A stretch of DNA of 64,000 nucleotides from an uncultured Acidobacteriota bacterium (GCA_963729215.1 CAVSND010000011.1:2836-66835); one strand, 5' to 3'; counted from the stretch's first letter, positions 19,036 to 34,878 are shown. The notes: generated by a model from the sequence alone, not told the origin. Program-made: numbers and translations.

Positions 19036-19110
19036 TGAACGCAAAACGCAAAACGTAGAACGTAGAATGTTGGCGTATTTCTTCGTTTAATTCTGCGTTC
19101 TACATTCAGG
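19036..19110. repeat. imperfect palindromic element built from AAAACGY / GTAGAAC units (family shared with 34795-34878)
   Basis: 'tgaacgcaaaacgcaaaacgtagaacgtagaatg...cttcgtttaattctgcgttctacattcagg'. Lies between convergent genes; relatively AT-rich. Confidence 0.5.
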
Positions 19111-19132
19111 GCGATGTTTTGTCAGCGCCCTG

Positions 19133-19636
19133 TCAGTTCGACAGCCGGCCGGCATGGCCGAGGTAGTCGAACGGCTCCGCGCTCAGCCGCGTGTCGATGT
19201 GGTGGCTCCAGAGCAGCGAGACCGCTTCGAGCAGCGCTTTCAGGCTGCACGGCTTCTCGACGAACGCTTCGTTCTCCCACATCATCACCTTCTCTTCGAA
19301 CAGGCGATCGCTGTAGCCGGTGACGTAGAGCACCTTGATGTCCGGATTGTTCATCCGCAGACGGCGGGCCAGCTCGCATCCCGACATCTCCGGCATCATC
19401 ACGTCGGTCACCACCATGTCGAGCGTCTCCAGGCTCGCCGCCAGGCGCAGCGCTTCGGGGCCATTTCCCGCGATGACGGTCGTGTAGCCGGCGCCCTGAA
19501 GCACGCGCTCGACAAAATTCCGAATCCCTTCCTCGTCGTCCACCACGAGAACCGTCCTCGGCGGCCGCGGCGTGTGCTCCATCGGGAAGAGCCGCTCCGC
19601 CATCGACGTCACGCGTTTCTGTATCCGGTTCGCCAT
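19133..19636 (-). CDS. single-domain response regulator (REC only)
   Basis: 'TVLVVDDEEGIRNF...LDMVVTDVMMPEMSG...VLYVTGY'. Start codon uncertain (Met at 19636, 19603 or 19582). Confidence 0.7.
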   Translation of the reverse strand: MANRIQKRVTSMAERLFPMEHTPRPPRTVLVVDDEEGIRNFVERVLQGAGYTTVIAGNGPEALRLAASLETLDMVVTDVMMPEMSGCELARRLRMNNPDIKVLYVTGYSDRLFEEKVMMWENEAFVEKPCSLKALLEAVSLLWSHHIDTRLSAEPFDYLGHAGRLSN

Positions 19637-19854
19637 GACTTTCTCCCTCTTCGTCCGAGGTAATCCGCCGGCCTGCCAGACGGTATTTCCAAGCCGATGC
19701 CAGTTCGAGCGCATTTGGAAGTCCTTGCCTTTGAGAGACTTGGGCGGACAGTGGCTGACAGGCACGTGTGCGCCGTGTCAACTGCCGCACAGAAAGCGTG
19801 CGCCGGCGACACAGTGGGCGCGAGCGTTCGTTATGTGGTGTGCGAGAAATGCAC

Positions 19855-21249
19855 TCAGTCTTTCAGATCGAGGCGGTCGAGCCAGCGATACAACGAGCGC
19901 CGGCTCAAGCCCAGCAGCTTGGCCGCGGCCGATTTGTTGCCGCCCACCTGACGCAGGACGCGCTCGATATGAACCCGCTGGGCCGTTGAAAAGGCATTCG
20001 GGTCGTCGCCCGGCCCCGACGCGCGTCCGGGCATCGGCGCCTGGGCCGCCTGCGGCGATGCCGCATGGGCGGAGGCCAGCGCGCTCGTGAGATCCCGTTC
20101 GCTGAGGATCTTGTTCTCCGTCAGGATGCACGCGCGTTCGATCACGTTCTTCAGTTCCCGGACGTTGCCCGGCCAGGTCTCCTGCTGGAGCAGGCGCTCG
20201 GCGGACGGCGTGACCCCGGTGATCGGACGCTTCAGGCGTTCGCCGCATTCGCGGACGAACCGGGCCGTGAGATAGGGAATGTCATCCCGCCGTTCGCGCA
20301 GCGGCACCAGATGGATTTCGATCACGCTGAGCCGGTAGAACAAATCCGAACGGAACCGTCCGGCAGCGGCCTCGGCCCGCAGGTCGCGGTTGGTCGCCGC
20401 GATCACGCGGACGTCCACCTTCCGGGTTTCGAGCGACCCGACGCGCTGCACTTCGCCGTATTCGACGGCGCGGAGCAGCTTCGCCTGCATCGCGAGCGGC
20501 AGCTCGCCGGCTTCGTCGAGAAACAACGTGCCTCCATCGGCGTGCTCGAGGACGCCGACCTTGTTATCTGTCGCGCCCGTAAACGCGCCGCGCACGTGGC
20601 CGAACAGCTCGCTCTCGAACAACGTCTCGACGACGGCCGAGCAGTTGACGGTGATGAAGCGCTTGCCCTGGCGCGGGCCGAGCTGATGGAGCGCCTTGGC
20701 GACGAGCTCCTTGCCGGTGCCGGTCTCGCCCTCGATCAGCACGGTTCGCACGTGCGGCGCGAGCCGGCGGATCGAATCGAAAAGCTCCTGCATGGCAGGA
20801 CTGCGCCCGATCATTCCCTGAAACTCGAACTGGCGCGCGACGTCGGCGTCCACGGCCATCAACCGCTCGCGCCGGCGAATGCCCTCGCGCACGGTGACCA
20901 GCAGCCCCTGGAGGCGCGCGCTGTCGAATGGCTTCGTCAGGTAATCGAGGGCGCCCGCCTTCACGGCTTCGATGGCCGTGTCGAGCGTCGCGTTGCCGGT
21001 CATGAGGATGGTCTGGCAGCGCGGATCTTCGGCGCGGATCGCTTTCAGGACGTCGATGCCGCCGACGCCCGGCATCTGGAGGTCGATGATGGCGAGCTCC
21101 GGCTGAATTTCCGCCAGGCTCTCGAGCGCGGCGCTCCCGCTGCTCCGATAGACGACGTCGAAACCGAGCTGGCCCGCGAATCGCTCGACCACTCCGACCA
21201 CGCCCGCATCATCGTCCACGACGAGCAGGCGCAACGATTTGTCGGTCAT
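19855..21249 (-). CDS. sigma-54-dependent response regulator (NtrC family: REC-AAA+-Fis HTH)
   Basis: '[10 protein letters not shown]...[10 protein letters not shown]', '[15 protein letters not shown]', 'GAFTGA', 'ESELFGH', C-terminal '[17 protein letters not shown]'. Confidence 0.9.
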
Positions 21250-33355: not shown

Positions 33356-33470
33356 ATCTGGTCATCTGGTCATCTAGTCATTTGGTCATCGTTTGGAAAT
33401 TTGGCAATTTCTCAATTGAACAACGATGACCAGATGACTAAATGACTAGATGACCAGATGATTGGGGTTC
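33356..33470. repeat. octamer-built palindromic element, copy 1 (arms of 4x ATYTRGTC + ATCGTT around a TTGGCAATTTCTCAATTGA core)
   Basis: 'atctggtcatctggtcatctagtcatttggtcatcgtt tggaaatttggcaatttctcaattgaac aacgatgaccagatgactaaatgactagatgaccagat'. Starts 1 nt after the AhpD-like TGA; the AmpG stop lies inside the right arm. Confidence 0.7.
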
Positions 33471-34706
33471 GCCCCGCCACGGCGCGACCTTGAAGAGCAG
33501 CAGCATGCCGGGAACCGCCAGCGCCGCGCACAGGAAGAAAAATCCCATCCATCCCAGCGTGTCCACCAGCCAGCCGGTGGCGGCATTGGCGAACGTGCGC
33601 GGCACGACCGCGAGGCTGGTGAACAGGGCGTACTGGGTGGCCGTGTAGCCGGGGTGGGTGGCGCGCGCGATGAACGCGCCCGAGGCGGCCGCGCCCAGGC
33701 CGACACCCAGCGCCTCGAGGCCAATCACGATGGCGAGCCGGGTGAGGTCCACGCTGGTGATCTCGGTGTGGGGCCCGGCGGCGGCCAGCCACGCGAAGCC
33801 GAAGATGGAGAACACCTGGACGAAGCCGAACAGCCACAGGGCCTTGTTCACGCCGATCTTCACCATCCACAGGCCGCCGAGCAGGCCGCCGACGACCGAC
33901 GGCCACAGGCCGGCGTTCTTGGCGACGAGCCCGATCTGGGTTTTGGAAAAGCCCATGTCGAGATAGAACGGCGTCGCAAGCGCCGTGCACATGCTGTCGC
34001 CGAGCTTGTAGAACAGCAGAAACGTCAGGATCAGCAGCGCATTGCTCCATCCCTTCCGGTTGATGAATTCATGGAACGGCTCGACCACCGCCTCGCGCAG
34101 CGTCCGGGGCGGCGCGGCGCGGTGCGGCTCCCGGACCAGCAGGGTCATGACCATGCCGGGCACCATGAACAACGCGGTCACCGCGAACACCACGCTCCAC
34201 GGCAGGATGTCGGCGAGCACCAGCGAGAGCGACGCCGGCACGAGCCCCGCGATGCGATAGGCGTTGATGTGGACGGCCGTGCCCAGGCCGAGCTCGTTAT
34301 CCGCCAGCAACTCCCGGCGATAGGCGTCGAGCGCGATGTCCTGGGTGGCGGAGAGAAACGCCAGCAGCGTCGCGACCAGCACGATGGCGCGCAACTCGGT
34401 CTGCGGCGAGAGCCCTCCGAGCGCGGCGATCGTCACGAGCAGCCCCACCTGAGTCAGCAGCATCCAGCCGCGCCGCCGCCCCAGCACGGGCAGGGCATAC
34501 CGGTCCACCAGCGGCGCCCAGAGAAATTTCCAGGTGTACGGGAACTGGATCAGCGTCAACAGGCCGATCACCCTCAGGTCGATGTGTTCGGTGCGCAGCC
34601 ACGCGGGAACGAGCGTGAGCAGCAGGTACAGCGGCAGGCCGGAGGCAAAGCCGGTGAACACGCAGATCAGCATGCGGCGGGTGAAGAGTTGCCGCCAGAC
34701 GGTCAC
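33438..34706 (-). CDS. AmpG-family MFS transporter (muropeptide permease-like)
   Basis: 422-aa single frame, 12+ TM, 'DAYRRE' and 'YKLGD' AmpG-type motifs. The last residues ('...SSGHLVI') are encoded by the repeat element. Confidence 0.65.
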   Translation of the reverse strand: MTVWRQLFTRRMLICVFTGFASGLPLYLLLTLVPAWLRTEHIDLRVIGLLTLIQFPYTWKFLWAPLVDRYALPVLGRRRGWMLLTQVGLLVTIAALGGLSPQTELRAIVLVATLLAFLSATQDIALDAYRRELLADNELGLGTAVHINAYRIAGLVPASLSLVLADILPWSVVFAVTALFMVPGMVMTLLVREPHRAAPPRTLREAVVEPFHEFINRKGWSNALLILTFLLFYKLGDSMCTALATPFYLDMGFSKTQIGLVAKNAGLWPSVVGGLLGGLWMVKIGVNKALWLFGFVQVFSIFGFAWLAAAGPHTEITSVDLTRLAIVIGLEALGVGLGAAASGAFIARATHPGYTATQYALFTSLAVVPRTFANAATGWLVDTLGWMGFFFLCAALAVPGMLLLFKVAPWRGEPQSSGHLVI

Positions 34707-34794
34707 AGTCGTTGCTCCAGATGGGCACCCGGGATGCGCGTCACGCGCCTCGCAGTTCCGGGGGATTCTATCAGGCCGCGGAAGAGTGCGGCTT

Positions 34795-34878
34795 GAAACG
34801 TAGAACTGTAAAACGGAAAACGCAAAACGTAGAACTTCCTGAGTCCTTCTTCGTTTTACGTTCTACGTTTTACGTTCC
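34795..34878. repeat. hairpin element of tandem AAAACGN heptamers (arms 'cgtaaaacggaaaacgcaaaacgtagaac' / 'cgttttacgttctacgttttacg')
   Basis: Shares the 19-mer AAAACGCAAAACGTAGAAC with the element at 19036-19110. Lies between the VWA gene stop and the AmpG promoter. Confidence 0.5.

Follow-up and report, generated by a model that had tools for sequence, protein, structure and literature searches.

A 64,000-nt stretch of DNA from an uncultured bacterium (GCA_963729215.1 CAVSND010000011.1:2836-66835; hereafter the window) carries two AT-rich palindromes whose arms are built from tandem heptamers. They had been proposed, in an original prediction made from the sequence alone, as a second palindromic family of the window beside a family of octamer palindromes. 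Our analysis shows that both belong to a larger composite unit, which was copied between unlinked sites within a single bacterial lineage and was gained recently at both window sites. Element 1 (whole unit 19014-19132, 119 nt) lies between a hybrid histidine kinase gene with PAS, HisKA, HATPase_c, and receiver domains (16926-19013, + strand) and a convergent single-domain response-regulator gene (19133-19636, - strand; homologues of 165-168 aa), the two neighbors that had been predicted for it. Element 2 (whole unit 34771-34905, 135 nt) is followed downstream by an AmpG-family muropeptide MFS transporter gene (33438-34706, - strand; TIGR00901, 482 bits) and is abutted by the stop of an acidobacterial-type VWFA gene (34906-35917, - strand).

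Architecture and gene context of the elements

The two units share a three-hairpin layout, recovered by a two-orientation alignment together with folding, in which an AT-rich heptamer hairpin stands between two GC-rich stem-loops. Over some 120-130 nt the order is a GC stem-loop, an A-rich run of RAACGYA units, a short conserved centre, a T-rich complementary run, and an inverted GC stem-loop, and the two terminal stem-loops of each unit are reverse-complement relatives of each other. The 19-mer AAAACGCAAAACGTAGAAC is found exactly at 19043-19061 and 34817-34835 in a search of the window, and allowing up to three mismatches adds four more matches, on both strands and all within the two elements, where shuffled sequence leads one to expect 0. 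A three-unit heptamer pattern matches seven times in the window, always at one of the two elements (0.02 expected). Period-7 arrays were reported in the arms by Tandem Repeats Finder at 19037-19067 (4.4 copies), 34810-34829 (2.9 copies), and 34852-34876 (3.6 copies), and a repeat finder gives inverted arms of 17-27 nt that are 85-94% complementary. Across 53 heptamer units the consensus is RAACGYA, with positions 2, 3, and 5 invariant and the variation consisting almost entirely of transitions at positions 1 and 6.

The original prediction is thus borne out in its shared 19-mer, its imperfect hairpins with tandem-heptamer arms, and the AT-richness of the elements, whose cores have a GC content of 0.38-0.40 compared with 0.66 for the window. 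The extents it gave, 19036-19110 and 34795-34878, capture the palindromes and miss the boundaries, as the units reach outward through the GC stem-loops. Also outside its reading were the flanking stem-loops themselves, their zero-distance abutment to stop codons, the turnover of the elements in relatives, and the known breadth of heptamer arrays in bacteria.

Element 1 begins directly 3' of the kinase TAG stop (19011-19013) with stem-loop B (CAGGCTGC-TGAAGAAC-GCAGCCTG, 19014-19037), which is supported by an inverted repeat and by the folds. Its core (19038-19106, GC 0.377) comprises the A-rich arm AACGCAA AACGCAA AACGTAG AACGTAG AAT, the centre GGCGTATTTCTTCGTT, and the T-rich arm TTCTGCGTTCTACATT. 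Stem-loop A (CAGGGCG-ATGTTTTGTCAG-CGCCCTG, 19107-19132) then abuts the response-regulator stop, read as TCA at 19133-19135 (TGA on the - strand), so that the outer stem-loops are flush with both stop codons, TAG being followed at once by CAGGCTGC and GCGCCCTG at once by TCA. In element 2 the left stem-loop (CAGGCCGC-GGAAGAGT-GCGGCTTG, 34771-34796) overlaps TGATAGAAT, an extended -10-like motif (34765-34773, - strand) located about 60 nt upstream of the AmpG-family start and marking a putative promoter. The core (34796-34876, GC 0.39) has the A-rich heptamer arm AAACGTAGAACTGTAAAACGGAAAACGCAAAACGTAGAAC, the centre TTCCTGAGTCCTTCTTCGTT, and the T-rich heptamer arm TTACGTTCTACGTTTTACGTT, and the right stem-loop (CCAGGCGT-13 nt-ACGCCTGG, 34877-34905) abuts the VWA stop, CTA at 34906-34908 (TAG on the - strand).

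Placing this last stop required attention to the VWA reading frame. The VWA homologue matches the acidobacterial VWFA model TIGR03436 (159 bits), and in tblastn with a close homologue VWA residues 1-243 and 251-335 fall in two different frames. Compared with homologues at 98-99% identity, the window gene shifts frame between 35163 and 35189, as a result of either pseudogene formation or an assembly error, and the apparent 353-aa open reading frame (ORF) that enters element 2 is therefore not the real C-terminus. By homology the true VWA stop is the TAG at 34906-34908 on the - strand, flush with the right stem-loop. The predicted position of element 2 between the VWA stop and the AmpG promoter accordingly holds for the gene context but not for the stop of the long ORF.

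Proximity to stop codons is a general property of the family: at least one element end lies within a few bases of a stop codon at 11 of the 11 sites examined, and between convergent genes the whole spacer is element. The trinucleotide beside the stem-loop is TAG at 10 of 18 termini, some of them where no gene ends. Among termini that are real stops, seven of ten have TAG, compared with 36% TAG usage in the window (p = 0.03, for sites that are not fully independent). The TAG stop codon of flanking ORFs is often supplied by the termini of repetitive extragenic palindromes (REP sequences; PMC3733652). The bias seen here agrees with that remark, but the preceding base is usually C or T rather than G (C or T in seven cases, A in two, and G in one), and no CGTC was seen at these termini.

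Dispersed copies and turnover at orthologous sites

A scan of metagenome contigs for the exact 19-mer returned 43 loci, about 15 of which, on soil contigs with a GC content of 0.63-0.67, carry the composite element beside unrelated genes. These include genes for HtpX-like, MetE-like/dioxygenase, pyrroloquinoline quinone (PQQ) sugar dehydrogenase, extracytoplasmic function (ECF) sigma/STAS, rhomboid, and PBP1A proteins. Five distinct sites were found in sample Ga0068871 and five in Ga0097621, which overlap to give a union of seven by the exact 19-mer, in addition to the two sites in the 64-kb window. Eight full copies align end to end (alignment A2). Their left arms share the unit order GAACGNA AAACGCA AAACGTA GAACGTA GAAT, their right arms share a different series with AATGTA variants, and all have the non-repetitive centre GCGTATTTCTTCGTT and terminal stem-loops of the types CAGGCTGC-TGAAGAAC-GCAGCCTG and CAGGGCG-loop-CGCCCTG. 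Since all of the other copies were found through the 19-mer, the similarity of the arm that contains it is partly a matter of selection, and the same applies to the invariant columns of A2, most of which fall in the heptamer arms and the centre, with terminal stem-loops that differ between copies, as in element 2. Paired changes between the stem-loop types (CAGGCTGC/GCAGCCTG versus CAGGGCG/CGCCCTG) preserve the stem. A 24-mer corresponding to stem-loop B, or a close variant of it, flanks the copies in L218, L240/L244, L235/L239, and L245/L246, and stem-loop A is kept in L186, L187, L218, L221, and L227.

An asymmetry of the arms and a centre that are common to unlinked sites argue that these units were copied from a common template and did not arise by independent local growth. 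The check for further copies that accompanied the original prediction therefore came out in its favor: the same unit order, centre, and stem-loops recur at seven or more other unlinked sites on GC-matched metagenome contigs and, together with the stable folds described below, support a second palindromic family of tandem heptamers. Pattern searches and an nhmmer family profile detected no further copy within the 64 kb, and the profile detected no diverged copies in approximately 130 kb of syntenic relatives. No family match was obtained in plasmids, phages, or viral contigs, a megablast comparison with plasmids giving only a 75% match to a Ralstonia SPFH gene, and a literature search gave no match to the element sequences themselves.

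Orthologs of site 1 were retrieved through response-regulator homologues, and the identities given are amino acid identities to the window protein. In L188 (86%) the convergent stops are separated by 3 nt (TGA-CCG-CTA), and in L184, L185, and L189/L190 (80-83%) by 8-19 nt with neither hairpin nor heptamer. The site in L187 (92%) contains two GC stem-loops back to back in 49 nt and no heptamers, that in L186 (97%) has stem-loop A and a single heptamer arm, with stem-loop B reduced to a remnant, and the window (100%) has the full element between the stops. The core segment of element 1 is absent from the orthologous site in L184, L185, L187, L188, and L189. It follows from this series that the element is a recent gain and that its modules, the GC stem-loops and the heptamer palindrome, can occur separately. 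A heptamer-free doublet of the same two GC stem-loop types, again back to back, is also found in L244 (3806-3855) and in its ortholog L226 (6020-6070); it lies in a divergent promoter region and not beside a stop codon, and so the stem-loops may be an element in their own right. Comparing the empty site of L188 with the filled sites revealed no target duplication, and a miniature inverted-repeat transposable element with a duplicated target was rejected on this ground. The CTAT that flanks element 2 left and right is a lone 4-nt coincidence. Stem-loop B differs between the window and L186 by a 17-nt self-complementary indel.

At site 2, DNA identity to the window is 96-98% across tens of kilobases in twelve contigs (L191-L201 and L248), and the alignment breaks exactly at 34732-34912, where these contigs carry another heptamer palindrome with GAATGYA units and other GC hairpins, 141 nt long versus 181 nt in the window. 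The TGATAGAAT region is missing from this alternative allele (11012-11143 in L191), whose sequence does not vary among the ten P0125-encoding contigs (L191-L200) and shows only a few substitutions in L201 and L248. In L202, at 90% identity, there is no heptamer palindrome, and GATAGAAT and the AmpG leader are kept. The ortholog pair L226/L240 likewise has closely similar flanking proteins, strongly different versions of the element, and TGA versus TAG as the adjacent stop. Taken together, the site 2 alleles and this pair show that the interior of the element turns over far faster than its flanks. In the family as a whole, 7-nt units are gained and lost, an arm can disappear, and one complete allele can take the place of another.

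The alignments around site 2 contain other interruptions. At 36027-36998, where the window has some 920-970 nt, the 96-98% identical L191, L201, and L248 have about 55 nt instead. On its - strand this segment encodes an N-terminus, beginning near 36951, that resembles a signal peptide; the segment also matches the acidobacterial VWFA model weakly, and it may be a gained or duplicated gene. Further breaks relative to L191, at 39562-39822 and 41163-41859, may be other variable intergenic elements.

Origin and spread of the element

We favor the interpretation, with a probability of roughly 0.55, that the unit is a non-autonomous, nested-palindromic repeat similar to REPINs, the hairpin-forming REP doublets defined by Bertels and Rainey (2011; PMC3116915), and to bacterial interspersed mosaic elements (BIMEs), and that its arms change by 7-nt slippage. 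Its architecture, its dispersal, the lack of target duplication, and its preference for gene 3' ends all match these elements, REP sequences of the canonical type are present in the window, and Acidobacteria are reported to carry genes for Y1 transposases with inverted repeats on either side (PMC3733652). The element would spread as single-stranded hairpin DNA through a host-encoded HUH/Y1 transposase, either a REP-associated tyrosine transposase (RAYT) or one of the TIRYT type, as REPINs do. Insertion would occur without target duplication beside TAG or other stops, where insertions are tolerated, and the arms would then be remodeled by replication slippage in a 7-nt register and by hairpin-templated repair. 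Any effect on the host would most likely be incidental: the flanking transcripts would end in strong hairpins, and site 2 would have AT-rich DNA placed just upstream of the putative AmpG promoter.

Several observations weigh against this interpretation. No transposase turned up when the window and related loci, about 0.2 Mb, were scanned crudely for an HUH...Y motif, and the tag beside the stem-loops is YTAG and not GTAG. Across copies the interior is conserved no less well than the terminal stem-loops, unlike in described REPINs, yet it is hypervariable at orthologous sites, and the former comparison is affected by the ascertainment of copies through the 19-mer. Copies were counted in a 64-kb window and in metagenome contigs rather than across a whole genome. 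The heptamer-free stem-loops of L187 and L244 (3806-3855) could also mean that two separate elements merely associate with each other.

Whether the heptamers might have arisen in place bears on a wider phenomenon, as arrays of related units are common elsewhere. A genome-collection scan with AAAACGYAAAACGYAGAAC, a slightly degenerate form of the 19-mer, gave matches whose counts apply to those listed, are biased by the pattern, and do not include the source lineage. Across our scans (RAAACGY)n arrays occur in Chloroflexota, Acidobacteriota, Bacteroidota, Planctomycetota, Clostridia, and others. In the 144 distinct matches listed, 78% reach at least three units and 16% have an inverted partner within 150 nt, compared with 1.4% of control windows, and a still looser pattern has 77 matches in viral contigs. 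Thus, the composite element with its centre and stem-loops is specific to this lineage and the heptamer unit alone is not.

Such arrays are what one would expect if slippage had first produced heptamer runs and strand switching (template switching) had then turned them into palindromes, with the likeness between sites reflecting a favored unit and no mobility. This account would agree with the occasional inverted partner in unrelated phyla, with the over-representation of heptamer repeats in bacteria (PMC4692102, PMC4679880, PMC6749651), with unit numbers that differ between copies and between orthologous sites, with the missing target duplication, and with the self-complementary indel in stem-loop B. 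We consider it possible but unlikely, as the conserved centre, the order of unit variants, the asymmetry of the arms, and the stem-loops at eight or more unlinked sites require a common template, and the empty ancestral sites of 3-19 nt hold no heptamer from which an array could have been seeded. A model in which a telomerase-like activity adds repeats at both ends of a DNA break was rejected, since it needs a single arm polarity and the other phyla show both (18 versus 5); the conserved centre speaks against it as well. An assembly artefact is scarcely credible: palindromes can confuse short-read assemblers, and the partial L186 form lies on a contig of 779 nt, but many assemblies made independently, from different samples and with different pipelines, show this architecture.

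The remaining explanations assign the element a function, and here the folding results are relevant. Both elements fold far better than shuffled sequence (z of -6.0 to -6.7 as RNA and -5.7 to -5.8 as DNA), in line with the hairpins that had been predicted. For the whole units the minimum free energy ranges from -54 to -58 kcal/mol (RNA) and from -30 to -34 kcal/mol (DNA). Each terminal palindrome is predicted to form a hairpin of its own instead of pairing with the other. A host-selected regulatory device, namely a bidirectional terminator, insulator, or stabilizer of mRNA 3' ends that spread secondarily, would fit these very stable hairpins on both strands, the constant position at gene 3' ends, and the filling of entire convergent spacers, and REP sequences are reported to stabilize mRNA and affect termination (PMC3733652). 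We nonetheless find this reading decidedly doubtful. The stems continue into A-rich or mixed sequence with no U-tract behind any of them, which rules out an intrinsic (Rho-independent) terminator, and terminator scans gave one weak site at site 1, not above the shuffle rate, and none at site 2. At the same genes close relatives have no element, or another allele; folding is about as strong on one strand as on the other, so that G-U pairing does not point to a single functional RNA strand; and no Rfam family reaches the gathering threshold anywhere in the window. In the eight-copy alignment both sides have changed in only 3 of 19 pairs, the family being too young for covariation to bear on selection for structure either way. 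A consensus promoter scan returned no -35/-10 pair. A still different role, in which a regulator or nucleoid protein would bind the inverted RAACGYA/GTAGAAC repeats as an array of sites, would be consistent with the inverted arrangement and with a unit whose variation is confined to two positions. We judge it very improbable, given that a 7-bp period places successive sites on different faces of the helix, that the flanking genes are functionally unrelated, that the arrays are lost or replaced in close relatives, and that no candidate protein was identified; a LexA-type box of the form GTTC-N7-GTTC was dismissed for its wrong spacing.

As a REPIN-like repeat, the element would add an undescribed family, from an uncultured soil lineage that is probably acidobacterial by TIGR03436 and gene content, to the REP/REPIN class. 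It also shows that a unit copied between loci can include a simple-sequence heptamer array, joining two repeat phenomena that are usually treated apart. The ortholog series, with empty, stem-loop-only, partial, full, and alternative alleles in genomes related at 80-100%, amounts to a natural time course of appearance and decay. Because the elements touch stops and adjoin a promoter, they are candidates for fast, lineage-specific changes in the expression of their neighbors, which in the window are a two-component system and AmpG, and the rapid turnover of the family could serve as a strain-typing marker.

Comparison with known repeat systems

Tandem heptanucleotide repeats are over-represented in many bacteria and poorly explained (PMC4692102, PMC4679880, PMC6749651). 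Long simple-sequence repeats of this kind were described by Mrazek et al. (2007), as cited in PMC4679880 and PMC4692102, and named examples include the cyanobacterial short tandemly repeated repetitive (STRR) sequences, GGGAATC in Xanthomonas, and TAACTGA in Beggiatoaceae. Like these, the element has degenerate tandem 7-nt units in intergenic DNA whose number varies between relatives, and it has inverted array pairs, which are reported occasionally in Xanthomonas. Unlike them, its arrays are short (3-5 units per arm) and always palindromic with a conserved centre and stem-loops, and the whole unit is copied between loci. In other phyla (L085, L089, L096, L103, L116, L141, L167, L206, and others), many (RAAACGY)n arrays stand directly before a start codon with the A-rich strand as the sense strand, and resemble the Beggiatoaceae TAACTGA repeats, which are proposed to act on translation. 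The genome of the window is itself generally rich in 7-nt simple repeats, and direct, non-palindromic arrays lie at 55742-55813 (GGTTGGA/GGTTAGA, about 10 copies, beside an octamer palindrome), 58233-58301 (GGCTCGT, about 10 copies), and 54513-54582 (AACTTCC-like, about 5 copies of a 14-nt unit).

The octamer palindromes of the window, with ATCTGGTC units and a conserved centre, are at 33356-33461, 48239-48344, 53820-53923, and 55819-55907, all 0-11 nt from a stop, and the TAG stop of AmpG itself lies inside an arm of the first. The orthologous copy is kept with different unit numbers in L191, L201, and L202 and is absent in L203. The independence of the heptamer elements from this family stands, as they have no sequence in common with the ATCTGGTC palindromes. 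Both families are present on contigs L232 and L236, which ties these two 19-mer contigs to the broad lineage of the window.

Eukaryotic foldback (FB) transposons are kilobase-scale elements with a different transposition system, and have long inverted terminal repeats of short tandem subrepeats in which the repeat number and the centre are variable. The inverted arms of tandem subrepeats are alike in the two cases, and the analogy is one of construction only. We regard it as speculative, and improbable, that palindromes with tandem-repeat arms (heptamer, octamer, and inverted arrays elsewhere) form a distinct bacterial class of foldback mobile elements, in which the mover, possibly an HUH nuclease cutting at GTAG/TAG in the units, would both copy the element and make the 7-nt units. 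If true, this would provide a mechanistic origin for the unexplained excess of heptanucleotides in bacterial genomes.

REP-type elements themselves exist in this lineage, as indicated by a canonical GTAG REP cluster at 23745-23832 and by a homologous cluster in L227 (2096-2206). The window cluster, located between convergent genes, consists of two head-to-tail GTAG-CGGCCGGCYTCAGCCGGCCG units and an inverted CGTCCGCCTGAAGGCGGACG-CTAC; its stem sequence differs from that of the heptamer elements, and the TAG of its first GTAG is the stop of the gene at 22931-23749. With the GTAG REP superfamily of Di Nocera et al. (2013; PMC3733652), the element shares 7-8 bp stem-loops that abut coding regions, a terminal TAG that is often the stop of the flanking ORF, and head-to-head dimers. 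It differs in that only one of its ten TAG-bearing termini has GTAG, and, with no CGTC either, assignment to the canonical GTAG-tagged REP sequences was rejected.

The resemblance to REPINs and BIMEs (PMC3116915) is likewise accompanied by differences. The spacer of the element is a palindrome of tandem 7-nt units, conserved at least as well as the terminal palindromes; the tag is YTAG as opposed to GTAG; orthologous copies are hypervariable; and no associated RAYT was detected in the same crude scan of lineage DNA. Like REPINs and BIMEs, however, the element has two short, inverted, GC-rich palindromes around a spacer, and the whole unit can fold into a long hairpin. Its copies are extragenic and dispersed without target duplication, they have singlet and doublet derivatives, and they are situated downstream of genes and between convergent or tandem genes, as are those of REPINs and BIMEs.

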